A DNA stretch of 64,000 nucleotides from Candidatus Eiseniibacteriota bacterium (GCA_903844735.1 CAIMUX010000087.1:4738-68737); one strand, 5' to 3'. Counted from the stretch's first letter, positions 4,918 to 54,783 are shown. Notes: generated from the sequence alone by a model not told the origin. Translations and numbers: made by a program.

Positions 4918-5020
4918 CGCATCCCTCCAGTTTCGATCTCCCTGCCTCGATCGGAGACATAGAGTAGAAAACGGCCCGATGAGAGCAGCAGGAAGAGAAG
5001 TAGGGCGGCTGACGCAAGCC

Positions 5021-6918: not shown

Positions 6919-6943
6919 GAGAGATGCGCCTCCCCAACCATTG

Positions 6944-8044: not shown

Positions 8045-8052
8045 CGGCCGCG

Positions 8053-10914: not shown

Positions 10915-11619
10915 ATGAGCACCAAAGCTACCCTTTCCATCCTCTCCATCGCACTGTCTGCAGTTGTGTTTTCGGCTCCTCTCGCGACACCCTCCCCCGC
11001 CGCGGCCGTTTCGCCCCCCAATCTGTCGGGAACCTGGAAGCTCGATCGCGCACGCAGCGACGCGCCCCGGGGAGGCATGGGCCGTTCGCAGGGTTCGGAG
11101 GCACCCTTGGGAAAGGACCGTCCCGAGGGAAAACTCGAAGACGAAGGCCGGGGCGGGCGCCGTGGTGCAGACGGGCGCGGACCCCGCGGCGAGATGGGTC
11201 CCGGGAACGGGGGCCCGCCGGAGGGACGTCGCGGGCGAGGTCCGGGGCGCCTGCCGGAATCCGTGATCGTGGTCCAGACCGTCGGCGGCGTCGAGTTGCA
11301 AGATAGCACGGGCGTCGTTCTGCGACGCATCACCACCGCCGACTCGACCGGCAACGCGACTGGTACCTCGACCGGCGCGAGCCAGCCCGATCTCTCAGCG
11401 GACCCGAAAGATCCGTCCGTGATCGAAACGTCCCGCGGAATCTGGGAGGACCAGAGCCTGGTCGTCCGGTCACCCAGGCCTGATGGGCCCCAGGCCACCC
11501 AGACCTTCAGCCTGGCCGATGACGGGCAAACACTGAAAGTCACAACCCATGTCGAAGCCTCCGGCGATCGACCCGCAGTCGAGTTCACGCGCGTCTATCA
11601 CAGGACGAGCAGCAAATGA
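10915..11619 (+). CDS. Small secreted protein with Gly/Arg-rich low-complexity centre
   Basis: ATG at 10915 is preceded by GAGGTGA. Signal [29 protein letters not shown]. The central region is [35 protein letters not shown]. Its stop overlaps the start of the ABC ATPase gene. The annotated 10804 start adds a non-signal extension and is unlikely. Confidence 0.45.
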
Positions 11620-12380
11620 TCTCTCCCGTCGCCCAGACCGCCGCGCCGATCATGGAAGACATCATCATTCGGACGCAGGGACTGCGCCGCGAGTACTTCA
11701 TGGGCGGGGAGTGCGTCCGGGCGTTGCGCGGCCTCGATCTCGTCGTGCGACGAAACGAGTACGTCGCGATCATGGGGCCTTCGGGATCCGGAAAGTCGAC
11801 CCTCATGAACATCCTCGGGTGCCTCGACACACCCACCGCCGGCGACTACTGGTTGCACGGCACCCTGGTATCCGGGATGACGGACAAGGTTCTCGCCCGC
11901 ATCCGCAACCGGGAGATCGGGTTCGTCTTTCAGACCTTCAACCTGCTTTCGCGCGCCTCGGCGCTCAAGAACGTGGAGCTTCCGCTTCTTTATGCCGGCA
12001 TCGGCTCCGTGGATCGCAAGAAGCGGGCGATCGCCGCCCTCGAGCGCGTTCAGTTGGGCGACCGGATGCAGCATCGGCCCAACGAACTCTCCGGCGGCCA
12101 GCGGCAGCGCGTGGCCATCGCACGGGCCCTGGTGACCCGTCCGTCACTCCTCCTCGCCGATGAGCCGACCGGAAATCTCGACAGCAAGACAGGAGAGGAA
12201 GTTCTCGCCCTTTTCGAGCGACTGCGGGAGGAGGGGCAAACCATCATCGTGGTGACGCACGACTCGGATATCGCCGCGCACACGCACCGGCGGATCCTGC
12301 TCCGTGACGGGGAGATCGCCTCGGATGATCGGACCGGGCCCACCGCGGCGGCGGTGATTTCCAGCGGGAGGGAAAGATGA
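11616..12380 (+). CDS. ABC transporter ATP-binding protein (MacB/LolD/DevA family)
   Basis: Walker [11 protein letters not shown]-loop, ABC signature [15 protein letters not shown], Walker [14 protein letters not shown]-loop VVTHD. The start could be the internal Met ([11 protein letters not shown], 11652). Confidence 0.85.
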
Positions 12381-13732
12381 GGTGCTCGGTGTTGTTTCTG
12401 GTGACGATGCTGTCAGCGGCGACCGCAACCGGAACCCCGCGAGCGTTTGCGGATCCGTCCGCCGGCGATACTCGAAGACCTGACGCAACGGCGCCGGCGC
12501 CCGGCACTCATGCTTCGGACGCCGGCGTGACTGTAGGCTCGTCGAGCGTGATCGACCCGGTCCCCCGCCCGATCACGCTGGAGGAAGCTGTGTCGATGGC
12601 GCGGCAAAACGCTGTGGCGGTCATCAAGGCCGCCGGGCAGAAGCAAACCAGCGACGCGGAGGTCCGCTCGGCCTACGCCGCTTTCTTACCGAGTGTCAGC
12701 CTCTCGGCGGGAACGCGTCAGTCGACCAGTGTGGCCGTCGGTTCGATCACGCTGTTCGAAGGGGGTCGGCGGATCTTCGAGCTGCAGCAGGCCCGGACGC
12801 GGCAGGCCTCGGCCGTGATCGACGGAACGACCCAAGCGTTTGTCGCAACCCTGGCGGCCAAGCAGCAGTTCTTCAACGTGCTGCAGGCGCGAGAGACCGA
12901 GATGGCGGCCAAGGCCCAGCTCGCTCAGGCCGAACAGCAGGGCCGCGTCGCCAATGCGAGGGTTCGGGCCAGAACGGCGACCCGTTCCGACTCCCTGCGG
13001 GCCGAGATCCAGGTACGCAGCGCCCGAATTGCGGTACAGAACGCGCGCGATGCAGCGAGCATGGCCGGCTCAGCGCTGACGCGCATCGTCGGTTCGCCGG
13101 ACCCGGTGACCGCCACAGAGGGTGACTCGCTCGGGTCTGCCGGCCTGGCGGTTACGGACGAGTCGCTTCGCGTCTTGGCCGAGAGTGGCCCGGATGTTCG
13201 CCAGGCGGAACAGGCGTTGTCGGCAGCCCAGACCGCGCGGCGCAGCGCGTGGGTCGGATACCTCCCGTCGGTGACCGCCTCCTACTCGCGTGGCACAGGC
13301 GGTGGGAGTGGGATCGCCTGGCAGGACGGAAGCGGTTTCTCCCCCACGGGTTCGATGCGGCTGTCGCTTTCGCTTCCCCTCTTCAATCAACTCCAACGGG
13401 AGGGACAGATCACGCAGGCGGAGGTCGCGGTCCACAACGCCGAAGCATCCCTGCGCGACGCGCGCCTGTCGGCCCGGGAGGTGATCTTCCAGTTGCTGGT
13501 CGCCTTCCGGTCGGCGCAGGACCGCGCCGCCTCGCAGGAACTCAATGTCGAAACCGCCGTGGAGGATCTCCGCGTGCAACAACTGCGCTACGCCGAAGGC
13601 GCGTCAACACTGCTCGATCTGCTCACCTCGCAGACCCAACTGGACCAGGCGCGCCGCGACTTGATCCAGGCCCGCTACGACCGGCGGGTGGTCAAGGCAC
13701 AGATCGAGGCGCTGGTGGGACGAGATCTCTAA
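12377..13732 (+). CDS. TolC-like outer membrane efflux protein (OEP family)
   Basis: 451 aa with signal [19 protein letters not shown]. Two coiled-coil/beta repeat halves typical of outer membrane factors ([15 protein letters not shown]..., [35 protein letters not shown]). 4-nt overlaps with both neighbours. Confidence 0.7.
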
Positions 13733-13743
13733 TGGAGGATGTG

Positions 13744-15201
13744 ATGCGACATAACAGCAAACGGCGACACCTGGTGCTATTCCTGGCCGGCCTCACGGTC
13801 GTGCCGGTCACGATCACTCTGGGGTGTGGCCTTCTGAAGCGCGGCGGGAAACAGCCCTCCGTCACCACGGAAGCCGCGGCCCGGCGTGACATCGCCGTGA
13901 CGATCGAGGCGACCGGCGTCGTCGAACCGGTGGACCTTGTGGAGGTGAAGTCCAAGGCATCGGGGCAGATTCTGCGGATGCCGGTGGAAGTCGGCTCCAG
14001 GGTGCGCGTCGGCGACCTGCTCGCGCAGATCGACACGGTGGACGTGCAGAACCAGTATGAACAGGCCTTCGCCGCCGAACGGGCTGCTCGGGCGAAGGTG
14101 GATGTCTCAGCCGCGCAGTTGAAACGGGCCGAGGAGTTGTTCGCCCAGCAGGTGATCACGGTGGTGGAGCACGAGAGTTCGACCCTGGACTACGCCAACG
14201 CGGAGTCGCAGCTCGTGAAAGCCCGCACCGATTTCGACACGGCGCGGCAGCGCCGGGCGGACGCCACCGTGCGGGCGCCCGTTGCGGGGACAGTCCTCCA
14301 ACAGCTCGTCTCGGCCGGACAGGTCATCGTTTCGGCCACCTCCTCGGTGAGCGGTGGCACGGCCCTGTTGCGCATGGCCGACTTGGCGCGGATCCGCCTG
14401 CGCGCTCTCGTCAGCGAGACCGACATCGGAAGCGTCAAGCCGGGCCAGGTCGCCACCGTCTCGATGGAAGCGTTCCCCCAGAGGTCGTTCCAAGGCACGG
14501 TCGAGAAGGTCGAGCCGCAGGCCGTGGTGCAGCAATCGGTCACCATGTTTCCGGTGCTCATCTCCATCACGAACGAGGATGGACTCCTCCTGCCCGGCAT
14601 GAACGGCGAGGTTTCGATGCAGGTCGATCATCGCGACAACGTTCTCGCCGTTCCTCTCGATGCGGTGCGCACGGTGCGCGAACTGCCTTCCGTCGCGGCG
14701 GCCCTCGGCATGAACGCCGACTCGGTGCAGGCGCAGTTGACGCGGCGTGTCGGAAGTCGCCGGATTCGGCCGCCTGGAACACCGGGAGATGCGGACTCGA
14801 CCCGCCGGCATGGCCCCGAAGGGTGGGGCGGCCGGAGTCGCGGCGCGGGCATGAACTCTCCGCCCAACGGTGGCCCCCCCACGGGTGCCGGCGGGACAGT
14901 GTCCGGGAACGGATCCCGCGGTGCTTCCGTTGAGGGCGCGAGCCGCGCTCAAGCGATCCTGATCAAGACGGCAAAGGGAATCGAGCCGCGGCTGGTCCGG
15001 CTCGGGCTCAGCGACTTTGATTATGCGGAGGTTCTGGGCGGCCTCGACGAAGGAGACCAGGTGGTGCTCCTGGGAGTCGTCGAGCAACAGACCAAGCGAA
15101 CGGATGAACAGAGCCAGATCCGGCAGCGCTTGAGCGGCGGTACGCCCGGCGCGCTGCCGGGCTCCGGCGGCGGCGGCCGGCCCTCCGGAGGAGGGCACTG
15201 A
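13744..15201 (+). CDS. Efflux membrane-fusion (periplasmic adaptor, HlyD/MacA family) protein with Gly-rich C-terminal tail
   Basis: GGAGGA RBS then ATG at 13744 (MRHNSKRRHLVLFLAGLTVVPVTI...), followed by a biotinyl/lipoyl-like and beta-barrel region (VTIEATGVVEPVDLVEVKSKASGQILRMPVEVGSRVRVGDLLAQID). The long six-frame ORF from 13249 is rejected because it overlaps the TolC-like gene. Confidence 0.75.
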   Translation: MRHNSKRRHLVLFLAGLTVVPVTITLGCGLLKRGGKQPSVTTEAAARRDIAVTIEATGVVEPVDLVEVKSKASGQILRMPVEVGSRVRVGDLLAQIDTVDVQNQYEQAFAAERAARAKVDVSAAQLKRAEELFAQQVITVVEHESSTLDYANAESQLVKARTDFDTARQRRADATVRAPVAGTVLQQLVSAGQVIVSATSSVSGGTALLRMADLARIRLRALVSETDIGSVKPGQVATVSMEAFPQRSFQGTVEKVEPQAVVQQSVTMFPVLISITNEDGLLLPGMNGEVSMQVDHRDNVLAVPLDAVRTVRELPSVAAALGMNADSVQAQLTRRVGSRRIRPPGTPGDADSTRRHGPEGWGGRSRGAGMNSPPNGGPPTGAGGTVSGNGSRGASVEGASRAQAILIKTAKGIEPRLVRLGLSDFDYAEVLGGLDEGDQVVLLGVVEQQTKRTDEQSQIRQRLSGGTPGALPGSGGGGRPSGGGH

Positions 15202-15202
15202 C

Positions 15203-16426
15203 ATGATGCTCGGCGAAACCATGACCGTCGCTGTCGAGGCACTGCGCTCGAACAAGCTCCGCTCGCTCCTCACGATGCTGGGGATCGTCATCGGCGTCGC
15301 CGCGGTCATCGCCATGGTCGCACTGGGACGCGGCGCTCAGCAGTCGGTGAATCAGCGGATCGCCTCGCTCGGCACCACCCTCCTGACGGTCGTGCCCGGC
15401 CAGGCCCGCGGACCGGGCATGATCGCTTCCGGGTCGGATCGGGCCGCGTTGACGCTCGACGACGCGGTTGCCCTCGAAGACCGGTCCACGCACATTCTCG
15501 CCGTGCAACCGGAGATGTCGCGCCAGCTCCAGGTGCAGTACGAGAGCAAGAACACCAACACGACAATCGTCGGAACCACCGCCAACTACCTCGCGGTGCG
15601 AAAGTTCGCCATGGCGTCCGGCCGGATGTTCACCACAGGCGAAGACACCGCCCGGCGGCGGGTCGCCGTGCTCGGCTCCCAGGTGGTGCTCGACCTGGGC
15701 GTTTCGCCGGCATCCCTGCTGGTGGGCCAGGAAATCCGGATCGGCGGGATCCGGTTCGAGGTCGTCGGTCTGCTGGCATCGAAAGGACAAGGCGGCGGAT
15801 TCCAGAATCCCGACGATCAGGTGCTCATCCCGATCCAGACCGCCCGCTATCGCCTGATCGGCGCCGATCGCCTGCGATCAATCAGCGTCCTGAGTCCGTC
15901 CGAGACCGAGATCCCGGCCACCATGGCCGAGATCGAAAAGATCCTTCGTCGCGAACACCGCCGGACCACCGGCCAGGTCAATGATTTCTCGATCCGCAAC
16001 CAGGCCGACTTCCTTGCGACCCTGGGCGAAACGACCAAGGTGTTCACCTACCTCCTGGCCGGGATCGCCGCCGTGAGCCTGCTCGTCGGCGGCATCGGGA
16101 TCATGAACATCATGCTGGTCTCCGTGACGGAGCGAACACGGGAAATCGGGGTGCGCAAGGCGCTCGGCGCGACGCAGGGCAACATCCTCCTGCAGTTTTT
16201 GATCGAAGCGATGGTCCTATGTCTGCTGGGCGGTGTGATCGGCATCGGCGTCGGAACCGGGGCGGCGACCATCCTGCGGATTGCGTTCAAGTGGAACACC
16301 TCCGTCGGTCCCTCGTCGGTGCTGGCGGCGTTTGGGTTTGCGGCCGTCGTGGGGATTCTCTTCGGGGTGTGGCCGGCGCGGAGAGCGGCGGCGCTCGATC
16401 CGATTGAGGCGTTGCGGTATGAATAG
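15203..16426 (+). CDS. ABC transporter permease (MacB_PCD + FtsX domain)
   Basis: 407 aa starting MMLGETMTVAVEALRSNKLRSLLTMLGIVIGVAAVIAMVALG. It has a large periplasmic domain and a C-terminal FtsX-like 3-TM bundle (REIGVRKALGATQGNILLQFLIEAMVL...). Confidence 0.85.
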   Translation: MMLGETMTVAVEALRSNKLRSLLTMLGIVIGVAAVIAMVALGRGAQQSVNQRIASLGTTLLTVVPGQARGPGMIASGSDRAALTLDDAVALEDRSTHILAVQPEMSRQLQVQYESKNTNTTIVGTTANYLAVRKFAMASGRMFTTGEDTARRRVAVLGSQVVLDLGVSPASLLVGQEIRIGGIRFEVVGLLASKGQGGGFQNPDDQVLIPIQTARYRLIGADRLRSISVLSPSETEIPATMAEIEKILRREHRRTTGQVNDFSIRNQADFLATLGETTKVFTYLLAGIAAVSLLVGGIGIMNIMLVSVTERTREIGVRKALGATQGNILLQFLIEAMVLCLLGGVIGIGVGTGAATILRIAFKWNTSVGPSSVLAAFGFAAVVGILFGVWPARRAAALDPIEALRYE

Positions 16427-16821
16427 ACAGAGGTTGTGGCGAAGACCGGTACCATCGCGCCTGATTCTCGACTACCCGAACGCCGGCAACATCGACGAGG
16501 CGGTTGCCTGTCGGAGGATCACGGAGGCGAAGGTCGCCGGCCTGCGCGCGGCCCTCGAGGCCGGGAGATGTCCTCCCTCGAACACCGCACTCGGAGGCGA
16601 CATTCTCATCCACGGACAGAACCCGAAGGTGACCGCGCAGCTCAGGATGGAGCGACGGGGCCGGCGGCGGCGCGCCGGGTCTGGAACCCGGCGACATGGC
16701 TCCGGCGACGCTGAAGCAGTTCTACAACTGGACGCTCGGCTGCATCGGGATGACCAACCCGGACATCCGGGATCTTTATCAGTACATTCTCGACGGGACT
16801 CCGGTGCAGATCGCGCCGTGA
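16419..16821 (+). pseudogene. Truncated and frameshifted YafK-type L,D-transpeptidase (YkuD_2) remnant
   Basis: Frame 0 from ATG 16419: LILDYPNAGNIDEAV...GGDILIHGQNP (compare E. coli YafK INIGFPNAYDRAHG...LMIHGDCVS). The catalytic-Cys motif TLGCIGMTNPDIRDLYQYILDGTPVQIAP (compare YafK IGCYAMTNQGIDEIFQFV) lies in frame +1 and ends at TGA 16819-16821. A roughly 103-nt GC-rich insertion (16629-16731) separates the His and Cys motifs, and the N-terminal roughly 100 aa of the family is absent. Confidence 0.45.
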
Positions 16822-40931: not shown

Positions 40932-43838
40932 CTACTCTCCCCCCTCGAACTCCGAATCCCGGAACCCAAGCGTCCTCGCATTCTCTCGAATCGTCCGCTG
41001 GAGATTCTCGTCAAAGCCGGCCGCCGACTCGGCATGGATCTCGACCGTGATCTGCACGTTCACTCCGGGCCGCTCGGTGAAGCGGATCACGAGTTCATCC
41101 ACGAGGTCAGCGAACCTCTTCTTGGCCTGGACGGCATCCAGACTGATGGTCCCGTAGAAGCGTCGCTGTACCGGTGCCTTGGCACCTCCGCCCGTGCGGC
41201 CCGCGCCTCCGCCGGGGCCGAGGCCCCCTCCGCCAGTCCCGCGACCAGTGCCACCGGGGGGGTCCGCGATGACCCCTTCGCCGCCCCCGCCCCCGACCGT
41301 CCCGCCGGGCTTACCCGTGGATGCCGCCGCCTCCGCCGCCGCATACTCCCGCGCCACCCTCGGCTCGATGATCAGCAGCGAGCCATCGAACACCGGCGCG
41401 GGTAGCTTCCCAAAGCTGAACCCCGTGTACTTCCCCGCCTCCTTGCCATACGCAAACCCAAAGAAGTCCGTACTCCCCGCCCCCGCCACCAGCGCCCGCC
41501 GAAACACCTCCTCGTCCTTCAGCCGCGGCAGATACAGGTACTGGCATGTCTTCTGCCACACCTCCAGCGCCCCGACCTCGACGACCTCCGCCTTCCAGAA
41601 CCAGGTCGTCAGCATCTTGGCGAGGTGAATTGGCGCCCACTCACTGATCACGAGCTCGTTCTCTCTGAGCACCAGCGCCAGTTCCTTCCCGAGGTCAGGA
41701 CTGCTGGGGTTGAGCGGGAACGCCTCCCACTTGATCTCGGAGACACCGCCGACTCCCGTGCCCTCGAATGCGGGTGTCCCCCCGGAGGCGGCCTTGACCC
41801 CTTTGGGAGGCAGTGCTTCCTGCATCGGCGCGAGCAGCCACCTGTAGACCTCGCGAACCATCCGGGTCAGTGTTTCGCGGGCCTGCGCCAACGCGGCCTC
41901 GGCGTTCCTTGCCATCAGGTTGTCCAGCACGATCCGGTTGTCCCGGTAGTCATTCACGATCGACTGCCACGCCAGCAGCGTCCGGACCAGATCCTTGAGT
42001 CGGGACACACTGTCGTAATCAGCCGCCAGGAACAGAAGCCGGTTCTGCTTCTGTCGCGGCTGTTCGCCCCGGTGTTTCAGGATCTCCGCGGCGCCTTGAA
42101 TCGCAAGGCCGTGGCCGGCGCGGTTGTAGGCTGCCTCGGTCGGCAAGACCACGAGTCGGAGCGACCAATCATCTGGGATATCCGCGGCGGGGGTGAACAC
42201 ATGGACACCACCGAACAAGCCGGGGGTGAGACTCTTCTGAAGACGCTCCCGGATGACGGGAAGGATGTCCTCCCGGTCCTGGAAGCGCTTCTTCCGCTCC
42301 TCCATTTCGCGGCGGAGGTTCGGCCGGGTGTCGAACCAGTATCGGTCGTTGGCCTGGTTGAGATAGTGCAGCCGGTCGACGAGCCGGTTGAGTGCGTCCT
42401 CGTAGAGGCTGAGCTGCTGGTCGGGCTGCAAGCAGCCAAGCAGGACTTGCCCCACCTCCAGGCCGCGCACTCTTTGTCCCGTGGTCGTGGGGGCACTCCC
42501 GAGGAAGATCGCTCGCGCCGCCCGCCGGCACCCCTGCACGCTCCCCAGGCGCGGTTCCTTGTTTTCGATCTCGGTGGTCTCGGCCCGCTCGCCGTCGATG
42601 TCGCTCTCCACCACCGGGTCCCAGCCCGGCGGCAGGTAGTAGATCACCTCGTTGCGCACGTCGGCGTCGTAGAGGGGCAGGTTGGCCGGGAGGATCAGCA
42701 GGTCGTTGTTCCCATCCTTCCAGAGCCGGTAGATCACCTTGGCCATGAGCTTCAGGACACCGCGTGTGCGCTGGAACGACTCGAGCGTCGACCAGTCCTC
42801 GTACAACCGCCGAAACACTTCTGGGTGGATCGGATAGGCGTCGCGCATCCGAGACGTGTACCGGCTGTCCTGGGTCTCCTGGGGCAGGCTGGGGTTGGCG
42901 ACGTAGAGCTCCGCGAAGGCGCGACAGACGGCATCCGCGGCCGCGGCATCGTTCACCTTCGTGAAGAGACGGCGGCGGACGATCTCGAACGCCTCCTCGG
43001 TTCCGACCGGCTTCCAGAGCGCCTGGACGCGGCCGAAGTAATGCTCCAGGGCGTTCAGTGCTCCCTGTCCGCGTTGGCTTCCGGCCTCGCGGTCCGACTC
43101 GGGAAGTGAGGCAAGCAGCACCGCGCTCGGAACCATCTTCAGCGCTTCGGTAAGCGCCTGGATGAACGAGAGGTTCGAGTCGTAGGTCCCGCCCGCGTAC
43201 GACTTCCCCTCCTCGAATTGCCGGATGTAGGCGACAAGTTCGTCCACGAGGACGACGCACGGGGCGTGGCCGCCGAGCAGCCGGGCCAGGACATCCTTGC
43301 CAGGCGACGTGCCGCTCTCGTCGGCCTCGCGGACCAGGGCGTACCCAGACTCGCCCCCGAGCTGCCAAGCCAGCTCTCCCCAGAGTGTGCGCACGGTGAG
43401 CCCGTCGCGCTTGCGGGGCATGTTCGGGGCCAACTGGTTGCCATCGAGGACGGCGATCGTGGCCCGCGGCAGCTCGGTGATCTTCGCGGCGTCGAGGATG
43501 GGCGGGATGCCGGCAAGGTCGGCGGAACTTGCTGTCCCCTTCGCCAGGTGGTAGACCGCCAGCATGGTGTGCGTCTTGCCGCCGCCGAAGGCGGTCTGAA
43601 GCTGGATCACCGGGTCCCCGCCGCGTCCGGCGATCCGCTTCACGACCGAGTCGAGGAGGAGTTTCATCCCCTCGGTGATGAAGGTGCGCTGGTAGAAGAG
43701 CACCGGGTCTTGGTACTCGGGTGTGGCGGTGCCGTCGTGGACGCGCGAGAGGTCGGCGGCGAACTCGGCTTGCTGGAAGGTGCCCTTCAGGACATCCTCG
43801 TGGGGGATGGCGACTTCGCGCCAGGGTTTCAGGGTCAT
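40932..43838 (-). CDS. DUF499-family P-loop ATPase (defence system component; BrxC/PglY-related)
   Basis: Internal Met [36 protein letters not shown] matches my recollection of conserved DUF499 N-termini. Walker [19 protein letters not shown]. About 969 aa from 43838, and the ATG overlaps the stop of the upstream gene (43835). The 160-aa G/R-rich N-terminal extension in the six-frame ORF is rejected. Confidence 0.65.
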
Positions 43839-45391
43839 GGGTTGGATCCCTTTCGTTGAACTGCGGGGTGCCTCGTCTGGCTGGCCAAGGTCTTCTGACC
43901 CTTCTTCGTCAGGCGGTACTTCTGCAGGCGGCTGTTGGGCTTGTCGGGGACCGTGAACTCGACACGTGCGCCTGTCAGGAGCGTCTTCAGCACAACCTTG
44001 AGCTGTCCAGAGACCCGTTCCTGCCCCAGTTGCTTCGAGATGACCGCGATGGGAAGGGCACCGTTGCTCAACAGAGCCAGAACGCGGTCTTCCAGTGACT
44101 GGTACTGGACTGGTACTGGACTGGTACTGGACTCCGGCTGTGTCTCCGGCCGTGACCCTACCCCCGACTCCACCTTTGCCCCTACCTCGGCACCAGCCGT
44201 CTCCCCCACGCGCACCCGGAAGGTCACCACCGCCGCCCCGGTGATCTCCTCGAACTTCGGCTGAGCGATCCCCGCGTCGCGGCACATTTCGACCACGCGG
44301 TTCGTCCCGCGCCCCCACTTCTCGATGAGGCCGGTTCGATGGAAGACGTCCGCAATCAGTGGGTTCCGCTGGACCGACAGGTGGTTCTGCGTCAGGGATC
44401 GGGGCGTGATGCCCTTGGGAAAACCTCCCGCGCTCCAGACCTCCACGCGATCGTCGAAGATCGCCAGCGAAACCGCGCCCCCCGCGATGGAGTAGTCGCG
44501 GTGGATGAGGGCGTTGACCAGGATCTCCCGCATGGCGTCCGGTGGGATGAGCAGCGTTTCCACCCGCCTCATTTGGCCCGGGACGATCCTCGCGGGCATC
44601 GGGAAATGGCGCTGGCAGAAGATCTCTGCTTCCTCCAAGAGCTTGAATGCCGGGCCGCGCACCTGGCGCTGGTCAAGGAACTCGGTCTTGGTCGTCCCCC
44701 GGAAGCGGGCCATGCGAAGCTCGCACTGCGGGTAGTCCGGCATGAACGTCTTGCCAAAGAGGACCACCGCGCCCTGGAGGATGCGGCCATCCGTGCGGAG
44801 ACCCAGCCGGGTCAGCACATCGGGAAGGCTCCGGCCCACGGGTCCGACCAGACGTCCGACCGAGCGGGCGATGTCCACGATGCGGAAGACCTCATCGCGG
44901 TCGATGCCCTTGATGGCCATCCCCTCGGCGGGCTCGTTTTCCCAGCGCCGCTTCGTGTGGGCGCGGGCGAGGAGGAGATTCTCGTACTTCTCCTGGGACA
45001 TCTTGCGCGTGGTGCTGGCTACCCGTTCATACGGGCGACCATCGAAGGTGAACGGAGCCGAATCCAGGGTCTTCGTGGTGCGAAGAATCAGAATCTCCCG
45101 TCCGTTCTCCAACGACAGCCGTTCTATCGGGAGATCCACCGGCGGCTCGAAGCGCTCAAACGCCTGCGCGATATCGCGGAGCGTCTGATCCGAGACCTGC
45201 TGCCCCTCGGGCTGACCGTCGGGACGGACCCCGAAGAGCACCATCCCGCCCGAGCCGTTCAGGAAGGCGCAGATGGTCTGCAAGCCCTCGCGCAGTTCGC
45301 CGGTCGAGCGCTTGATCTCCAGGTTCGGACCCTCTCCCGGTTTCAGGAGCCGGGCGAGGTCGTTCTCACTCGCGGGGATCTTCGGGATCAT
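43835..45391 (-). CDS. AlbA_2 (Schlafen-like 'divergent AAA') + HATPase_c_4 + C-terminal wHTH protein, paralog 1 (embedded in defence locus)
   Basis: 518 aa. N-terminal [44 protein letters not shown] (AlbA_2 family), then a GHKL-like region ([14 protein letters not shown]...GRGTNRV). The linker is encoded by a 12-nt x3 tandem repeat ([11 protein letters not shown]). The C-terminal HTH is diverged from paralog 2. Confidence 0.6.
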
Positions 45392-45486
45392 GCAGCCTCC
45401 ACTTCAGCCGCGGACGGTCACGACCACAGTGTCCGTGGTCTCAATGCATTCCACCGCGGCGATGCCCGGTCTGTCGATCCAGCTCG

Positions 45487-46971
45487 TCACGGGACCACCT
45501 CCCAGCGTCCGCCCTTGTCGGGCCCGATTCGGCGGACTCGATTCTGCCCCTGAAGTGTCCTGAGATTGCGTTCAATCGTCCTGGCACTGACGCCGATAGC
45601 CGCGGCCAGATCGGCGATGGTGGCATCCGGGTGGTCGGCCAGCATGGAGAGAATGCGGCCCGGGGTCTTCTTGGCCGTTTTCTCCGACATTTCCTCCGAC
45701 GTTTTCTCCGACGTTTTCTCCGACCTCTTCTCCCGACCCTCCTCTGGTAGGTTCCCGGGGCGCGCCGGAACGATCGGGGCCCGAAACGTCACCACGACCC
45801 AACCTTCGCGCTCCTCGAACAGCGGCGGGGGAACGCCGTGAGCCAGGCACTCCGCGATCACCCGGTTCGTACCACGCCCCCAAACCTCCACCGCCCCTGT
45901 CCGGTGAAAGGCTTCGGCGATCAGCGGATTGCGAAGTTCGGATCCGTGCGACGTCGATAGCTGTTCCACCGTCACGCCGGTCGGCAGGCGGCCGTAGCTG
46001 CGGATTTCGACCCGGTCGTCAAAGACGACGATGGCGACATGACCTCCGTAGTAGGAATAGTCCCGGTGCATGACGGCGTTGAGCAGGATCTCCCGCAGGG
46101 CGTTCGGAGGAACCGGAAAGCGATCTTCCCGGAAGATCTGGCCCTCGGGAAAACGCGCCCCCAGAGGGAGCGTTCGCTCGAGGAAAGCCATGCCCTCGCG
46201 GACCATGGCGAAGGCATGGATGTGTTCCTGGCGATTGTCCACGATCTCGCCGGTGATCTCCGTGCCACGGAAACGCCCCATCTTCAGGTGGCACTGGGGA
46301 CAGTCCGACAGGAAGCTCTTCCCGTAGAGAACAAGGGCGGCCTGCGTGAGAACCCCGCCCACCCGCAATCCCAGCCGGTCCAAGATGTCGCCCGCGTCTC
46401 TGCTTGTGTCTGCGGAGATCCGGCTCTGCTGAACGGCCAGGTCCCGAGTGCGCAGAATCTCCTCGCGGTCCAAGTCGTCGAGCGTCAGCCCCTCCGAAGG
46501 GAGGTTTTCCCACCGTCGTTTGGCGTGTCCCCGCTCCAGGAGAAGCCGTTCATACGTCTCCTGTGACATCTTGCGCGTGGTGCTGGCGATCCGCTCATAG
46601 GGACGGCCATCGAAGGTGAACGGAACCGAATTCGAAGCCCCTGCAACGCGGAGAATCAGGACCTCCCGTCCGTTCTTCAGAGACAACCGCTCTATCGGGA
46701 GACTCACCGGCGGCTCGAACCGTTCGAGCGCCTGCGCGATGTCGCGCAGCGTCTGATCGGAAACCTGCTGTCCCTCGGGCTGACCATCGGGACGGACTCC
46801 GAAGAGCACGATCCCGCCCAGACCGTTCAGAAACGCACAGATCGTCTGCAGGCCCTCGCGTAACTCGCCCGTCGAGCGCTTGATCTCCAGGCTGGGCCCC
46901 TCTCCCGGTTTCAGGAGCAGGGCGAGCTCCTCCTCGCTCGCGGGGGATCTCGGGATCAAGGCAACCTCCAC
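45487..46971 (-). CDS. AlbA_2 (Schlafen-like) + HATPase_c_4 + wHTH protein, paralog 2
   Basis: 494 aa. The first roughly 300 aa are near-identical to paralog 1 at protein and DNA level. The linker is encoded by a 15-nt tandem repeat (EKRSEKTSEKTSEEMSEKTAKK). C-terminal wHTH (ADLAAAIGVSARTIERNLRTLQ). Confidence 0.6.
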   Translation of the reverse strand: MEVALIPRSPASEEELALLLKPGEGPSLEIKRSTGELREGLQTICAFLNGLGGIVLFGVRPDGQPEGQQVSDQTLRDIAQALERFEPPVSLPIERLSLKNGREVLILRVAGASNSVPFTFDGRPYERIASTTRKMSQETYERLLLERGHAKRRWENLPSEGLTLDDLDREEILRTRDLAVQQSRISADTSRDAGDILDRLGLRVGGVLTQAALVLYGKSFLSDCPQCHLKMGRFRGTEITGEIVDNRQEHIHAFAMVREGMAFLERTLPLGARFPEGQIFREDRFPVPPNALREILLNAVMHRDYSYYGGHVAIVVFDDRVEIRSYGRLPTGVTVEQLSTSHGSELRNPLIAEAFHRTGAVEVWGRGTNRVIAECLAHGVPPPLFEEREGWVVVTFRAPIVPARPGNLPEEGREKRSEKTSEKTSEEMSEKTAKKTPGRILSMLADHPDATIADLAAAIGVSARTIERNLRTLQGQNRVRRIGPDKGGRWEVVP

Positions 46972-46989
46972 TTCAGCACGGGATCCTCC

Positions 46990-49881
46990 TCAGATATCCA
47001 GATCTGTCTGCGTCCCCACCTGCCCCGCCCGATGCGAAGCCGCCTCAATCGCCGCCCATGTCGTAATCAGCTCGTTGCACGCCCGCGCATCCTCCGCCCA
47101 CCCCTTGCGCTCACATAGCGTATACAGCCGATACGCCAACTGCCGAATCGGCTCCATCCGCCCCGGCATCCGCGCCACCAGCGCCCCCGCCGCCATCTCT
47201 CCACCGGAGGTCAGCGCCCGCAGAAGGTGGTGCATCGCCTCCCAGATCGGCGTGCGCTGATCGTGCTCCGGCGACCAGTCGGTCGGGTACTCGGCGGGCC
47301 GCAACAGACGCACGGAACCCCGGCCCGAGGCGACGACCCCGGCTTGTACAACCCCTTCGACGCTGGTCCCCTTGGCGCGGGCGAGCACGTCGGCCTCGCC
47401 GAACTTTCCCTCGTCCCAGGCGTGCTCCTCGAACCAGTGCAGGCAGAACCTCGTGTCGGCGTCGAAGTCGTCCTCCGAGAAGAAGCGGTTTATGAGCTGC
47501 AGTGCGGTGCGCACGCTCATCGGCGTACCGTCGGCCTCCAGGACCGCGGTGTACTTCGAGAAGACGGCCATGCCCGGGCCGATGATCGCCTGGGAGAGGT
47601 CCACCGGCGCCACCGGCGAGTACTCGGCCCCGCGCGTCATGTCATCGAGGGCCTCAGGGAGAGCGGCATTGAGCTCGCGAAGGAACTCCCGCCGGGAGAC
47701 CGAAGGGGCGGTAGCCTCGCGACGGCGGCAGACGATGATGATGCTGGAGGCAAGGACGTTGGTGCCCGAGCCAATCATGCGGTTGCCTAGTTCTGTCCGC
47801 ATCGGCCAAGTGCCGCTTACGGAGAAACCAGCGCGAATCACCGCTTCGAGGAAGGTTTCCCAGCCAGTACTGGCAGTCCCTTCGGTGCATTCGGTTTCCG
47901 ATTGCTTGAACGCGTAGTAGATCGTGACCGGAAACGCTCGATGGGCGTGCTCGGCCAGGCGGTGCATCGCCTGCGTCATGCCGTCGAGGAAGAAGGTTTC
48001 GGCCTTCTCCTTGCTGCCGTGGCGATAGGGCGTGGCTACCAGCTCCTCGGCCTTGGGTACCACCAGCGTGGCGAAGAGGTCCGGAAAGACGGGCTTCAAC
48101 GACCGGCGCAGCCAGACGTAGAAGAAGTCCGACAGGTCGGCGTAGCCGATGTTGTCGTAGTAGGGTGGGTCGGTAGAGATGACCGAGCCATCGGTGATTG
48201 TCTGGGACTGCGCGTCTGCCTGAACCGCATATCCCGCCAGCGTAGCAGGCAACTGGTCTACCACACGCATCATGTTCTTGAGAGAGACGAGCGGATCACC
48301 GGCCATGTCACCGAAGGCATTGGCCTCGGAGTAGTCCCAAACCATCGGCAGCGCTTGCCGTCCGAATGTTGCGATGGACTGATCCATAGTGGTCTTCCAG
48401 CGACAAAGTGATGACTGGGCATCGGACATCTTGCTGATCGCCATCCCGAGATACACCCCCACCGCATCCGAGTAAGCAGTGGCGCCGGTGCCGCCAGCGT
48501 CGAGACTCTTCCCGTCATCGGCGAGGCCAGCGGCAAGGGCGTCGTGCCTCACACGCTCGCGCGCTTCCGAGACCAGATCGGCGAAGGTCGTCAGCGCCAC
48601 GAGCTGACGTGGGGTGAAGAGGTCGGCAAACGTCATTAGACCGTAGTTCGGCGTCTTGAAGTCACGCGGGTTCACGGGCAAAGCGACTTCCGGTCTCCAC
48701 TCCGGCTTCGCCGTGCGCGCCACCGCCTCCATCTCCAAGGTTGGCGGCAGATAGATCCGCCCGCGTCCGCCCTCTGCGACGATGGCCATGAGTCGTGCGC
48801 CCATTTGGCCAGACTTGCCCGCCTCGCGGATGTGATCGTAGGGCACCGGGACACCCGACATTAGGCAACGGAAGGCGGCGCGCTTGCCAGCCGTGGTGCC
48901 GAGCTTCGCAGCCTCGGCGTCCTTCGGGCTGCCCACCTTCACTGTGAAGCGGTAGCCGCCGCCGCCGACTACTGGCTCGACATACGTTTCCTTGCCCGCC
49001 TTCGTGGAGAGCATGAAAGTGGAGACAAGCGGCACGTCGATCTCCGAGTACGCTGGGTTGGGACTCTTCACAGTCCGCGCCCAGAGCCACGCGATGACGT
49101 TGAGCTTCTGGCCAACCAGCGGTTTCAGATCCGGCCGCGGATTGCCCGGATCGCGGACCATCTCCGCGGTAATCGCGACCTTCGGGTACAGGTGGCCGAT
49201 CCGCTTCTCGGCCTCGCCCCACATGAAACCGCCGTAGTACCGCACATCCTCTGCCAAACCCTGCGCGCCGCGCCAGTTCCTCGCGACAAGTGATTTCTCA
49301 CTACGGGCCGCTGGGTTCACCGGCCGTCTCCCGGCGAACTTCGGCGGGATCTCGATCATCGCCTTGTTGATCAGCACTGCCACCGGGTTCAGGTCGCTGG
49401 CGTGGGCTTCCAGCCCCAGCCGCTGCGCCTCCAGCGGCAGCGCACCTCCTCCCGCGAACGGATCGTGGAACGCCGGAAGGTGGTCCGGATCGAACAGCGT
49501 AGCGGCTTGCGGATGGTCGCGGTTCAGGTGGCAGGTCTCCCGCCAGCTCCGGCGGATCTCCGCGCGGGCTTCCTCCAGCACCTCCTCGTTCGTAGTGTTC
49601 TCCCAAAGCACGAGCTTGCGGATGATTCCGAAAAGCCGTTCCCGCTCGCTAGCGGCCTCCTTCTTGTTGACTCCGCGGCCCAGACCACGTTCGTAGCCAG
49701 GGTCGTTCACCATCTGCGCGAAGATCACGGCGCGAGCCGCAGCGAGGGGCCGCCGCGCCCACCAGAGGTGCAGCGTCGAAGGATGCCCGTGACGGATCGA
49801 CTTTTCCTTCGCAGCAGCGACATTGATGTCATCCAGCGGCAGGGCGACCTCGATGAGCTTCTTGGGGCACTTGACGGTCAT
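46990..49881 (-). CDS. DUF1156-domain DNA methyltransferase (DPPY-type N6-adenine/N4-cytosine)
   Basis: Internal Met [52 protein letters not shown], with [11 protein letters not shown] recalled as DUF1156. AdoMet motif [13 protein letters not shown] and catalytic [21 protein letters not shown]. The start ATG overlaps the stop of the CBS-HEPN gene (49878-49881). Confidence 0.7.
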
Positions 49882-50723
49882 GGATTCCTTTCTCGCTGGG
49901 ACGACTCTGCCCGCGCGAGCAGTTCGTCGCGCGTCCCGCACTCCGACTTCAGAATGTCGAACAGGCTGATCCACTTCTCCGCCGCCAGCACTCGGGCGAT
50001 GCACGCATCAAAACCGAAGTTGTTCGCATGAGCCAGGCCGTTTCTCAACTTCTCGATGCCGACTAGCTCCCGCTTGAACCCCGTCACTTGCTCTCTGCCC
50101 CATAGTGCCAGGCGGCCGACGACCTTGCGCTTGTCGCAGAACTCCGACGCCTCTATGAGATCTACATCCTCGGAATTAGCTCCCAGCTTCTCCCAACGCT
50201 CCACAAGATCACTTTCGCGTTTCTTAGTAAGAGTCGATAACCACTTCTTGCTTGGCGATGGATACACGAGCCGCATCACGTCTGCCATCTGCATTTCCAG
50301 GTGCGTGATCACGGCAAACGCCAGGAGGCGCACGGGGAGCTTCTGCAAGTCACTTCGGGTTACGATTCCACATGCACCCTGGCCAGTGTGCACTAACGCG
50401 TACGGAGTGTTTCCGGCTTCACGAAGGTAGGTGATTAGAGGCGTCTCCGCAGCGACCAAGCGAACTTCACGAAACGCCTTCATCTGTGAACCTGCGTCGC
50501 CGTCGTCGCTCGTGGTCTTCAGATGCAGCACACCTACAATCTTACGGCCACGCTTCACCGGAACATGGTCGATTACCTGCGGAGACATACTTCGGCGAAC
50601 CTCTCCAACCAGATCGTCGGCCTTGCAGGTCACGAGACCAAATAACGCAATGTGGCGGACATGGAGACCGGTTTCAAGCCCTCTGAGCGTCTCCTCACAC
50701 ACGCTGCTACTTGCCGCCCTCAT
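49878..50723 (-). CDS. CBS-pair + HEPN-domain protein (embedded in defence locus)
   Basis: ATG 50723 is preceded by AGGAGG at -7. Two CBS-like units ([20 protein letters not shown]; [20 protein letters not shown]). The C-terminal [10 protein letters not shown] fits the HEPN R-x4-H motif. Confidence 0.55.
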
Positions 50724-50797
50724 GACACAGCCTCCTATTCATCAACAAGCATCGGTCGGCATTCTCCGGACAAGCCCGTGGACCGGTGCTGCCCGCT

Positions 50798-51280
50798 TCA
50801 TTCGTCATCATCAGGGTCAGGTCTTTCCAGGTCGATCATGAATCCCTTCGACACATCCTGGGCGATGATCGCACCCGCCACGTCGCCGATCCGAGGCGGC
50901 GCGGCCGCATCCGGGTACTCTGCAAGGATCCTGGCATGGAGAGCGTCCGCCCCGGCCCGATCCAAGCTCAGAAAGTACCCGGCGCCCATGCACATGGGAC
51001 AGATGGCATACGAGTTATCGGCCGGCTGATCCAGGAGACCGTTCCCCTTGCAGTAGAAACACCTCGTGCGGCACTCCGCATACAGACGGTCAGCAAGGGG
51101 GCGATGAGGCCCGACAGGCCGGAGGCCATAGATATTCTGGTAGACGGCCATGGACTCGAGTCGATCGTACTGCCACCCCACGTACTCGCCCGGCCTGCCA
51201 CACGTCGAACACAATTCCGACGTGGTCAGAATCTCTCCGTCTTCGGCACAGCACGTGTACCGCCACCTCTTCATCGGCAT
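50798..51280 (-). CDS. Cys-rich zinc-ribbon protein (embedded in defence locus)
   Basis: 160 aa with paired CxxC motifs (CSTC, C-x3-C-x2-C in [18 protein letters not shown]). Its start overlaps the helicase gene end by 10 nt. Confidence 0.5.
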
Positions 51281-54200
51281 CGGTAACCCTCCGCCCGCCC
51301 GAGCAGCTCATCCAGATCCAAGTTGATGCTGGTCACCGCCCAATCCGGCTCCTGCGTAAACGGCCGGCGCACATAGAACGGCCCCTCGCACCGCTCCTCG
51401 TCAACCAGCACGATCGCTAACAGAAACTTCTCCGCCTGATTGAGCCCGTAGATGATCTCATTGCGCGACACCGTGATCGTCGTCTGTCCTTTGGCCCGTC
51501 CCTTGACCTCGAGATGCCGACACTCCGCCAGCCGCCCCTCTGTCGCCCTCAACGTGCTCGTCACGTCCCACCCGCACTTCTGCGCCGAGACATCCACCAC
51601 CTCGTGTCCGAGGGCGCGTTCAGCGGCCATCACCGTCTCCATGGCGAGCTGCTCGATCCGCGCGCGGGCGAGCGCATCGACGGCCCAGCGCGTGTCGCAG
51701 CGGCGCTGGGCCAGAAGCCCGGCCGGGATGACGAGCGCGCCACCCGCGACCACCGGCGTGGCCGAGATGACGTGGCGCATCGCCTGCAGCTCCTTCGTCC
51801 GCGACTCCAGCCGCACGGTCAGCTCGTCGATCGTCCGACGGGCGTTCTCCAGCGACAGGCGCACGTCGCGCCCGGCGGCCAGGTCGTCCTTCAGCTTGAT
51901 ATACCGGTCGGAGCACGTGTTGATCTCGCGGACCAGCCGCTCGTGGACGGCGGCCAGGGTCTTGTCCACGTGCCGCTCGCGCCGTCCGCGCACTTCGTCG
52001 AAGTGGTCCGGCACGAGGTGGGCCGAGGCGTGGGACAGCGCCACCTGCTCTAAGTCCCGGGTGATCCAGGGCGCCTCGAGGATGTCCTCCACCGATCGCA
52101 GGTCAAACGCGCCGATCGGTTCCAGATCAAGATGCGGCGCCCAGCCGGCGTCGATCGAGTTCCCCTCGGCGTCGATCGCCACGAACTGCATCCGCCGCGA
52201 AACCTCCCGCGACGGGTCGTGCCCTTCTTTCACGGAGTGATCGAGGATGAACATCACCCGCGGCACGACACCCGGGTCGTGGGGGTCCACCAGTACCGCC
52301 CCCTGCTTGAGCTTGTTGCGGTGTTGCTCGAGGGCGAGGTCGGTGACCGCATGCATCAGGGGGTGGCCGGGGTGGAGCAGCTCCGCCCGTGGAGCCCCCG
52401 CCCGATCGAGGAGCCGCACATACTCCTTCTCGAAGCAGACTCGCTCGTACCGGCGCAAGACCGGGTTGAGGCTGCCCCGGTCGCGGCCGGTGATCTGCCG
52501 GTCCCGCTCGCGGATCACGGCCGGGACGTGGGTGATCTCCCAGCGACCGGTCTCCCGGGGACGCAGCTCGCCTCCCAGGCCCTGGAACACCTTGGCAAAG
52601 AACGAGCGGATGAAGAACGGCTGGAGCTTGCGGGCCTCGGCCTTCTCCATCTCCTCCTTGATCGCGAAGAGCCGTTCTTCGTCGATCACCTCGTCGCAAA
52701 GGGCGTTGCGGTGGATGATCGCCCGGAGGTGCTCGGTGTCGAGGACCCCTTCCACCCGGCGCAGGAGCCGGGCGCGGATCTCGGGATCGTCGCCGTAGCG
52801 GACCGCCTCGATCAGGAGTTCGCGCAGGCTCTTCTCCTCGAAGATCTCGCCGAGGATGTCGAAGACCCGGCCGCCGAGCGCCTGACGCTCAACCTCCAGC
52901 TTGTCGAAGAGCCGCTGGAAGACATCTCCCTCCCGCGTCTCGTTGGCCACGAGATTCCATAGGTGGCAGACCTCGGTCTGGCCGATGCGGTGGATGCGGC
53001 CGAACCGCTGCTCCAGCCGGTTGGGGTTCCACGGCAAGTCATAGTTGACCATCAGATTGGCGTTCTGGAGGTTCACGCCCTCGCCCGCGGCGTCGGTGGC
53101 CACGAGGATGCGTGCGGCCGGGTCGTTGCGGAAGATCTCCTGAACCTTGCGCCGCTCCTCGCGCTTCACGCCGCCGTGGATGGTGACGATCGCTTCCGGT
53201 GTGCCGAGCAGTCCGCCGATCTTCTCCTCGAGGTAGTGGATGGTGTCGCGGTGCTCGGAGAAGATGATTAGCTTCCGCTGCCGCCCTTCGGCGTCGCGCA
53301 TCTGTGGGGTGTTCTGGAGCAGCCGCGACAGCTCCTCCCACTTGCGGTCCTGACCGCAGTGGACGAGCACCCGGGCCTGCTCCTCCAGGTGTTCCAGGAT
53401 GAGGATCTCCGCCTCCAGCTCCTGGATCGTCTCGGCGGCGGTGGCGTCGTCCACCAGCGCCGACTCGATCGTCTCCTGCTCCTCGGCGTTCAGGTCATCC
53501 GTGTCGTCGGGTACCGACCACTGCGGCATCTGTGCTAAGACGCTGTCGCCCCGCCGGCCCAGCTTCTCCTCCTCGACCTTCCGCTTGAGCCGGTGGTGGC
53601 GGCGGCGGAGCGACTGGTAGATTGCCTCGGGACTTGAGGCCAGGCGGCGCTGCAGCGAGGTCAGCGCGAAGCCGACCGACCCCTTCCGCTTGCCGTCCGC
53701 CATCTGGTCGACCTTCTTCCACTCCTCCTTCACGTACCCGGTCACCGCCTGGTAGAGCGCGGCTTCGAGGTCGGAGAGCTTGTAGTTGACGGTGTAGGCC
53801 CGCCGCTCCGGGAACAGCGGCGTCCCATCGAACCGCAGCATCTCTTCCTTGACCATCCGCCGCATCAGGTCGCTGACGTCCACCTTGTGCGCCCCGTCCC
53901 TCGGCTTGCCGTAGAAGCGGTCTGTGTCGAGCAGCGACAGGAAGAGCTGGAAGTCCTCCTCCTTGCCGTTGTGCGGCGTCGCGGTCATGAGCAGCAGGTG
54001 GCGGGTGGTCGAGCCGAGCAACTCCCCCAGGTGAAAGCGCTGGGTCTTGTTGATCTTGTTGCCGTAGTAGGTGGCAGCCAGCTTGTGCGCCTCGTCCACG
54101 ACCACGAGATCCCAGCGCGTCTGGGCCAGCTTCTCGTGCAGGTCCTCGTTCCGCGAGAGCTGGTCCAAGCGGGCGATCACCAGCTCGTGATCGTCGAACG

Positions 54201-54783
54201 GGTTGCCCGTGCGGGACTGCTCGACCTGCTCCCGCGTGAAGACCAAAAACGAGAGGCCGAACTTCTCATACATCTCGTCCTGCCACTGCTCGACCAAGCT
54301 GCCGGGGGCCACGATCAACACCCGCCGGGCGTCCGCCCGCATGATCAGCTCGCGGATGTAGAGGCCCGCCATGATCGTCTTGCCGGCGCCGGGGTCGTCC
54401 GCCAGGACCAGCCGCAGCGGTTGTCGGGGCAGCATTGTCTCGTAGACGGCCGTGATCTGGTGGGGCAGCGGCTCCACGTTCGAGGTGTGGATCGCCATCA
54501 TCGGGTCGAAGAGGTGGGCCAGGTTGATCCGGTAGGCCTCGGCGGCGAGCTTGAACTCCTCGCCGGGGGCGTCGAAGGCCCAGGGGCGTCCGGCCTCGGC
54601 CAGGGAGAGGTTGGGCTCGTCGGTGCGGAAGAGCATGCGTTCGAGGAGGCGACCGTCGGCGGTCTTGTAGTAGACCGTCAGGGCGTCGGGGCCGACGGGT
54701 TCGGTCGTGACGACCCGGACCACTAAGTTGGGCTCGATGCCCGTCACGGCGGCGTTCTTGCGGATGTCTTCGAGTTTCAGCAT
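51271..54783 (-). CDS. SNF2-family helicase with C-terminal PD-(D/E)xK-like (DUF3883-like) domain
   Basis: 1170 aa with SNF2_N motifs ([14 protein letters not shown]-like VVVDEAHKL), Helicase_C ([45 protein letters not shown]), and C-terminal [13 protein letters not shown]...CRHLEVKGR resembling a restriction-endonuclease-like fold. Confidence 0.75.

Follow-up and report, generated by a model that had tools for sequence, protein, structure and literature searches.

Tandem Schlafen-GHKL Genes of Two Classes in an Hma Operon of Candidatus Eiseniibacteriota, with Apparent Exchange of Their 5' Segment

The DNA analyzed here is a 64,000-nucleotide stretch from Candidatus Eiseniibacteriota bacterium (GCA_903844735.1, CAIMUX010000087.1:4738-68737), referred to below as the window. 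It contains a complete Hma operon, and two genes encoding Schlafen-GHKL-winged-helix proteins, gene B and then gene A, are placed between hmaB and hmaC. Both belong securely to the pSlfn/Schlatpase genes. An earlier note, made from the sequence of the window alone, described them as a recent tandem duplication with slippage-prone linkers. The comparisons below point instead to anciently diverged relatives of two deeply separate classes, with exchange of the front end between co-resident genes. In the reading preferred here, which is given a probability of about 0.5, A and B are diverged Schlafen-GHKL genes of the Hma operon that act as ATP-gated RNase effectors with different sensors and have exchanged their 5' segment.

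Two Classes of Middle Region

More than 100 orthologues were recovered for each gene, with identities of 60-87% for A and 60-95% for B. The hosts of these orthologues include Planctomycetota, Nitrospira, Myxococcota, Omnitrophota, NC10, Acidobacteriota, and other phyla. The proteins of A and B are 54% identical to each other overall (47% in residues 151-400). Recent duplication was rejected, as each gene is far closer to its orthologues elsewhere than to its neighbor.

The homologues can be sorted using an alignment of 236 sequences, in which the N-domain is defined as residues 1-150 and the middle region as residues 151-400. The middle region splits into two sharp classes: members of one class are on average 78% identical there, and members of different classes 47% (standard deviation 1.4). 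No such division is seen in the N-domain, where pairs from different classes share 61%, pairs in class A 60%, and pairs in class B 67%. It is also the faster-evolving region among orthologues, at approximately 62% identity against 78% for the middle region. The N-domains of A and B in the window are nevertheless 83% identical, placing them in the top 0.35% among 13,800 pairs drawn from different classes.

A second, independent tandem pair, again B and then A, was identified in a Betaproteobacteria metagenome-assembled genome (L034; compared loci and contigs are given L numbers throughout). Within this pair, identity is 70% in the N-domain and 47% in the middle region. Compared with the window gene of the same class, the values are 57-61% and 75%, respectively. 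The L034 genes are approximately 460 nucleotides apart (9486-9950) and follow an SNF2 helicase gene whose product is 35% identical to HmaA. Their linkers contain four ESQP and three APQV repeats.

The earlier note had also raised gene conversion. Exchange of the 5' part, by conversion or recombination, is supported: the N-domain ignores the classes, and it is most alike between co-resident genes in two pairs. The shared 5' segment of approximately 420 nucleotides is probably the product of conversion or recombination of the part encoding the Schlafen domain. Purifying selection alone was rejected as the cause of the 5' likeness, because the N-domain is the faster region among orthologues and yet is 83% identical between A and B, against 47% for the middle region.

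The Shared 5' Segment

The likeness of A and B begins approximately 20 nucleotides 5' of the start codons, in GCTGAAGTGGAGG. DNA identity is 86% over nucleotides 1-300, 75% over nucleotides 301-450, and 64% over nucleotides 451-900, for 74% over 300 codons. At the protein level, identity is 83% for codons 1-150, 48% for codons 151-400, and 29% at the C-terminus. Near-identity over roughly the first 300 codons had been claimed for this pair. The 5' likeness is real, but it extends over approximately 140 codons at 83% protein and 81-86% DNA identity. Direct repeats D1, D2, D5, and D8 are spaced 1565-1569 nucleotides apart. The true partner of positions 45300-45391 is 46868-46959, at 85-87% identity; the pairing with 46880-46971 given previously is 12 nucleotides out of register, with 33% identity.

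Synonymous divergence (dS) between A and B is approximately 0.4-0.8 in the shared part and at least 1.2 downstream. Given the former value, the 5' exchange is old. Very recent conversion was considered and is not supported. Sites where gene B differs between the window and its close relative L007 have no bias towards A, with matches to A equally frequent on both sides, 13 versus 8 over the first 300 nucleotides and 15 versus 10 over the first 450. The duplication is unlikely to be an assembly artefact. With no more than 86% likeness, the copies are too different for a collapsed or expanded repeat to be plausible, and the B-to-A junction recurs with the same repeat count in a separate contig, L001.

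Domains, Fold, and Active-Site Motifs

The AlbA_2 and HATPase_c_4 domains named in the earlier note are present in both genes. Their Pfam scores (Table 1) are above the gathering cut-offs of 25.3 bits for SLFN_AlbA_2 and 26 bits for HATPase_c_4 (PF13749), and the fold search agrees. In both A and B, HATPase_c_4 is C-terminal to the Schlafen domain on the same chain. The unlike C-terminal winged helices of the tandem pair were likewise recovered, Fic-like_C in A and HTH_24/MarR in B. An NCBIfam search assigned no family to A or B, and PADLOC matched them only in part to Argonaute-associated SLFN/GHKL models. The start of gene B is most likely the TTG at 46959, which is preceded by GGAGG and lines up with the ATG start codons of A and the L007 orthologue of B.

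An AlphaFold2 model of A has a mean predicted local distance difference test score of 80.9, with values below 50 for residues 400-430. A Foldseek search against the PDB matched the whole chain to DIP2311 (3LMM) with E = 3e-23. Over parts of the chain, the N-terminal 145 residues (approximately) match mammalian SLFN5/11/12/13/14 and the tRNase domain of SAMD9 with probability 1.0, a fold resembling the C-lobe of mammalian Schlafen nuclease domains, the middle matches histidine and PDK-type kinases, and the C-terminus matches MarR/PadR regulators.

The Ex4ExK motif begins at residue 20 in both proteins and reads GEGPNLEIK in A and GEGPSLEIK in B. In both homologue alignments (A1 and A2), residues E20, E25, and K27 are invariant, and they line up with the SLFN14 active site TESTHVEFK. 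An Ex3N motif (the Mg-ATP motif of GHKL domains), REILVNA, is located at E289/N293 in A and E290/N294 in B and is invariant in alignment A1. Its likening to E314/N318 of RzAgo (see below) is by motif spacing and not by direct alignment.

Linkers, Repeats, and Winged-Helix Modules

Each linker is disordered and of the tetrapeptide type, and contains a short tandem repeat, as previously noted, with unit lengths of 11 rather than 12 nucleotides in A and 12 rather than 15 in B. The three 11-nucleotide units of A total 33 nucleotides, so the frame is kept. The encoded peptide is aperiodic and sits directly upstream of the winged helix. Its motif is found in 7 of 240 homologues, from both core classes. 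The DNA element was found in ten metagenome contigs, nine of which encode relatives of gene A that are 38-70% identical to it. The DNA-pattern scan used to find these is biased by its design; L100 and L102 were found through protein similarity alone. Exactly three units are present in the window, in L001, and in every gene-A relative found by the pattern scan or through the peptide motif (L090-L097, L099, L100, and L102). The L100 and L102 elements differ at 4 and 5 of the 33 positions, respectively, including synonymous changes. As a gauge of constraint on the DNA rather than on the peptide, the rate of synonymous change in the element at these two loci is not clearly below that of the flanks. 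Due to the constant three units and the conserved peptide, this element is considered a coding feature that became fixed long ago, rather than a slippage switch. The tenth contig, L098 (Ga0099819_1003503), contains the 11-nucleotide unit approximately four times at about 2199-2220, without a detectable gene-A homologue.

The repeat of gene B is identical in the close relatives L007 and L008. Together with the constant element of A, this does not fit the slippage-prone, hypervariable linkers that had been proposed. Across the family, linkers are 16-118 residues in length with a median of 31, and 13 of 13 clear repeats have a four-residue period. The type of repeat follows the type of winged helix, with (S/R/K)EKx before HTH_24 and ESQP/ESRP or QVTx before Fic-like_C. 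Each type is present in two to five copies across different orthologues. The linkers are therefore variable over evolutionary time, not as a switch.

Cores of class B carry either HTH_24 or Fic-like_C ends, which indicates that the winged helix is an exchangeable module. Many matches to B (73-80% identity over 80% of B) contain PF21247.

Loss of one 11-nucleotide unit would fuse A in frame with hmaC, for an open reading frame (ORF) of 1482 amino acids (44097-44133 to 43838). Phase variation or programmed fusion to HmaC was rejected, as no such allele was found and open off-frames are common in DNA of 65% G+C. Open runs of 95 codons or more account for 45% of the off-frame codons in this DNA, and no meaning is therefore attached to the open hmaC frame. 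Among the contigs with gene-A relatives, there is no copy-number variant that toggles the frame in the manner of a contingency locus.

Proposed Function and Alternatives

In the proposed mechanism, the GHKL domain would bind ATP and oligomerize A or B, and oligomerization would bring the Schlafen domains together as an active nuclease that cuts tRNA. The sensor would be formed by the middle region and winged helix. Beside Hma, A and B would serve as auxiliary or back-up (abortive-infection) effectors, each tuned differently. We infer this mechanism and any functional tie to Hma.

Several points weigh against this reading. Homologues of A and B occupy many unrelated neighborhoods, and only a few of 80 genome loci contain Hma-like genes. 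The GHKL motifs of A and B are divergent, and their ATP binding is a prediction. The third acidic residue of mammalian Schlafens, the Asp of GVDD, is not conserved; the sequence here is GVRPDG and is variable across the family. The definition of the bacterial family, Ex4(E/D)xK, does not need this residue (PMC13056530). HisKinase fusions tested in E. coli gave no defense (PMC13056530). For the N-domain exchange, no conversion was detectable since the split from L007, and N-domain likeness could track host lineage instead of conversion within a genome. The loss of part of gene A in L007 and L008, described below, carries a direction (loss there and not gain in the window) that we infer.

A serious rival, though on balance an unlikely one, is that A and B are autonomous defense genes that landed in the known insertion hotspot between hmaB and hmaC, with the same activity and no functional link to Hma. 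The contexts of homologues are diverse, ranging from none obvious (L002) to BREX (bacteriophage exclusion) type 1 (L102), SNF2/N6_N4 methylase/ResIII (L009), and a position beside UvrD (L104). The scarcity of Hma-like genes among the 80 loci, the inserted genes in 66.5% of hma loci (PMC11232893), and the dispensability of gene A in L007 and L008 are in line with this. Set against it are the ATGA overlap that couples A to hmaC, the position of B 30 nucleotides past hmaB, and the repeated occurrence of such genes inside methylase/ATPase operons rather than beside them (L009, L102; PMC12839542). It is improbable that A and B are transcription regulators of the hma operon, with winged helices on operator DNA as in BrxR/CapW and Schlafen/GHKL parts that serve only in ligand sensing. 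Their C-terminal domains do resemble MarR/HTH_24/DeoR/PadR, and 'transcriptional regulator' and 'putative DNA binding domain-containing protein' are among the names found in databases. However, Ex4ExK and Ex3N are invariant across the aligned homologues, the genes are mid-operon and neither upstream nor divergent, promoter-like signals are at chance level, and the characterized pSlfn proteins are effectors (PMC13056530).

Least probable by far is a contingency locus, in which a recent tandem duplication diversified at the C-terminus and slippage in the linker repeats tunes or switches specificity. Tandem paralogues that resemble each other at the 5' end, with a repeat in each linker, would fit, as would the potential A-hmaC fusion and the fact that the window and L001 have just two internal differences, both of them in the 11-nucleotide repeat. 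These are opposed by the closer foreign orthologues of both genes, the dS of 0.4-0.8 even in the shared part, the constant three units with a conserved peptide, the invariant B repeat in L007 and L008, and the frequency of long open off-frames. A further, quite doubtful reading is that the Schlafen segment is kept alike between co-resident genes for function. It may allow mixed A/B oligomers, in which class-specific GHKL dimers are joined via the Schlafen interface, or it may be a recombination handle for sensor cassettes. If the former were true, one tRNase core would be wired to two different sensors. If the latter, the linker and winged-helix ORFs (L007/L008, L009, L104, and the 28-codon remnant of the window) would be 3' modules that have been displaced, comparable to orphan toxin tips at Rhs and contact-dependent inhibition loci.

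Comparison with Known Systems

Prokaryotic Schlafens (pSlfn) have Ex4(E/D)xK as their catalytic motif and cleave tRNA once phage is detected by a fused sensor (Perez Taboada et al., Nat Microbiol 2026, PMC13056530). The most common pSlfn architectures are HisKinase (34%) and HisKinase-HTH (19%) (PMC13056530). RzAgo, a Schlatpase composed of Schlafen, GHKL, and Argonaute, binds ATP at PF13749 and forms a tetramer, which pairs the SLFN domains for tRNA cleavage (bioRxiv 10.64898/2026.05.29.728809). A and B share with these proteins the three-part architecture, Ex4ExK, Ex3N, the fold matches, and the location in a defense island. They differ in that two middle-region classes are in tandem in one operon. 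The characterized examples have an Ig-like, DUF262, or Argonaute partner, whereas A and B have a winged helix.

Genes encoding a Schlafen domain, a minimal histidine kinase, and a winged helix-turn-helix have been linked to BREX and to DUF499-centered (Hma) loci in at least 1017 taxa (NAR 2026, PMC12839542). They were proposed as back-up suicide effectors, and HEPN RNases were reported as often fused to DUF499 (PMC12839542). For the Hma system (PADLOC 2021, PMC8565338), inserted genes are carried by 66.5% of hma loci (Liu et al. 2024, PMC11232893), and anti-phage activity has been shown only for the HmaA of Halomonas (PMC11232893). Hma corresponds to the type-1 DUF499-centered BREX-related loci, with the same HmaA helicase-nuclease, HmaB DUF1156 methylase, and HmaC DUF499 ATPase in one direction. 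The window shares with them the extra genes between core genes, and a Schlafen-histidine kinase-winged helix gene as auxiliary effector is a listed association. The window differs in having two Schlafen genes and a remnant, and zinc-ribbon-like and CBS-like ORFs between hmaA and hmaB. Its DUF499 protein is without a HEPN fusion, and the predicted RNase is encoded by its own translationally coupled gene.

Among solved structures, only DIP2311 of Corynebacterium diphtheriae (PDB 3LMM) matches A over its whole length, with a sequence match over the GHKL part. It is an uncharacterized structural-genomics protein with approximately 17% identity. The HsdS subunits of the type I restriction systems EcoR124I/II have linkers of 12-base-pair TAEL repeats. 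By analogy, a 12-nucleotide tetrapeptide repeat is the spacer between modules here, with a copy number that differs among relatives. HsdS is an unrelated family, however, and a tie between repeat number and specificity would be conjectural here.

Publications of 2026 had already described the architecture and its association with BREX-type and Hma loci, and the window is an ordinary example and not a new kind of system. New here are the two-class middle region, the Schlafen exchange between co-resident genes, the family-wide tetrapeptide linkers, and the presence/absence polymorphism of gene A. The window is a natural example of how Schlafen-GHKL-winged helix genes, the most common pSlfn class and an uncharacterized one, are built and rebuilt. 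The apparent plan is a freely recombining nuclease domain, a two-class middle region as putative sensor, and exchangeable winged helices on tetrapeptide-repeat spacers.

At L102 (JGI 3300055072 contig, 1-16800), an A-class gene is located within a type-1 BREX locus, directly upstream of pglZ, with DuOB and DUF488. The same DuOB/DUF488 set is present at L003-L006 with a DUF1156 methylase and an SNF2 helicase.

Close Relatives and Turnover of the Locus

The ENA contig L001 matches window positions 42769-45940 with 3 mismatches in 3172 nucleotides and no gaps (99.9% identity). Two of the mismatches, at 44103 and 44133, are in the 37-nucleotide repeat of gene A; both are A-to-T and non-synonymous (E to V and Y to F). 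They could mark a local hotspot of mutation or conversion, or the linker peptide could be under selection. The third is 9 nucleotides from the contig end.

L007 and L008 are approximately 90% identical to the window and have the same gene order, including a flanking peptidase gene. Both contain hmaA, hmaB, and hmaC together with the small ORFs and a B orthologue that is 95% identical. The sequence corresponding to window positions 45411-44274, which comprises approximately the first 372 codons of A, is missing from both. In the position of A is a 150-amino-acid ORF with a GTG that overlaps the B stop codon and an end that overlaps hmaC. The beginning of this ORF, VTTRIDKPGIA, matches the 28-codon remnant ORF of the window (45404-45490), and the rest matches A from approximately residue 377. 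The remnant itself is homologous to residues 371-393 (approximately) of A. The simplest reading is that a 1194-nucleotide deletion occurred between the remnant and A, at the short shared sequence GG(G/C)ATCGC.

A sliding comparison of the window with L007 gives 88-99% identity outside of three islands. The first is in the center of hmaB (49250-47650), where identity falls to 57%. The second covers the A linker and the first half of the winged helix (44190-43906) at 71-73%, where L007 has ESQP repeats. The third is the 3' end of hmaC (41355-40939) at 72-79%. In hmaB, identity over 47650-49250 is 57-83%, with 48210-48500 especially affected, and this segment looks like a swapped target-recognition segment. 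The C-terminal 140 codons (approximately) of HmaC are 72-79% identical, compared with approximately 95% upstream, in keeping with the 'hypervariable C-terminal RRM' reported in DUF499 ATPases. The window and L007 are syntenic exactly as far as the hmaC stop codon.

The locus thus appears to turn over quickly, as the sister strains have evidently lost the first 372 or so codons of A and carry another linker and winged-helix allele. The window and its sister contigs, which differ in the presence of gene A and in methylase, winged-helix, and HmaC C-terminal alleles, form a ready comparison set for the accessory genes of Hma.

Short ORFs composed of only a linker and Fic-like_C (Table 1) are located directly after full-length family genes or are present as degraded copies. 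ORFs with only a linker and winged helix often overlap the stop or start codons of their neighbors. These may be functional small proteins, or else 3' modules that were displaced.

The Hma Operon

HmaA, HmaB, and HmaC are encoded in one direction within 40932-54783, and their PADLOC scores bear out a defense setting for the pair. The NCBIfam model DUF499_antiphage scores 197 bits on HmaC, under its cut-off of 1200. The ATGA overlaps of A with hmaC and of orf281 with hmaB, and the gap of 30 nucleotides between hmaB and the start of B, make one tightly packed unit, and A and B are probably co-transcribed with the operon. Promoter and terminator consensus scans of the region gave nothing above chance, and an Rfam search of the region gave no matches. 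The features are listed in Table 1.

Table 1. Features of the Hma operon, of genes A and B, and of related short ORFs. Positions are those of the window unless a contig is named.
Feature	Positions	Strand	Description
hmaA	51271-54783	minus	SNF2 helicase with C-terminal NOV_C nuclease; PADLOC HmaA 2056 bits; Pfam SNF2-rel_dom, Helicase_C, NOV_C
Cys-rich zinc-ribbon-like ORF	50798-51280	minus	160 amino acids; between hmaA and orf281; from ORF listing; gene called at same place in L007
orf281	49878-50723	minus	281 amino acids; weak CBS-like match; stop overlaps hmaB start (ATGA)
hmaB	46990-49881	minus	DUF1156 N6-adenine DNA methyltransferase; PADLOC HmaB 1698 bits; Pfam DUF1156
Gene B	45487-46959	minus	490 amino acids from likely TTG start; intact; ORF open up to GTG 46971
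Gene B SLFN_AlbA_2 domain	46564-46902	minus	Pfam, 62.4 bits
Gene B GHKL HATPase_c_4	45784-46047	minus	Pfam, 81.6 bits
Gene B linker repeat	45676-45733	minus	12 nucleotides x 4.8, 86% identity; SEKT-type tetrapeptides (Tandem Repeats Finder)
Gene B HTH_24/MarR winged helix	45505-45660	minus	Pfam
Shared 5' segment, copy in B	46435-46980	minus	Partner of the copy in A
Remnant ORF	45404-45490	minus	28 codons, VTSWIDRPGIAAVECIETTDTVVVTVRG and stop; GTG overlaps B stop; repeat family D4
Gene A	43835-45391	minus	Intact ORF, 518 amino acids; stop overlaps hmaC start (ATGA)
Shared 5' segment, copy in A	44867-45412	minus	Approximately 20 nucleotides upstream, including GGAGG, and codons 1 to approximately 175; repeats D1, D2, D8
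Gene A SLFN_AlbA_2 domain	44996-45334	minus	Pfam, 61.6 bits
Gene A GHKL HATPase_c_4	44219-44482	minus	Pfam, 83.4 bits
Gene A disordered linker	44102-44194	minus	AlphaFold2 model
Gene A linker repeat	44097-44133	minus	11 nucleotides x 3.4, 100% identity; unit TCCAGTACCAG on coding strand (Tandem Repeats Finder)
Gene A Fic-like_C winged helix	43907-44086	minus	Pfam
hmaC	40932-43838	minus	DUF499 AAA+ ATPase; PADLOC HmaC 1453 bits; Pfam DUF499
Short ORFs with only linker and Fic-like_C	L007 11482-11934; L008 5326-5778; L009 4570-4791; L104 1864-2268; L095 1339-1755, 2021-2533

The zinc-ribbon-like ORF and orf281 are both conserved in L007 and L008, where orf281 is 96% identical. They may be added components of this Hma variant.

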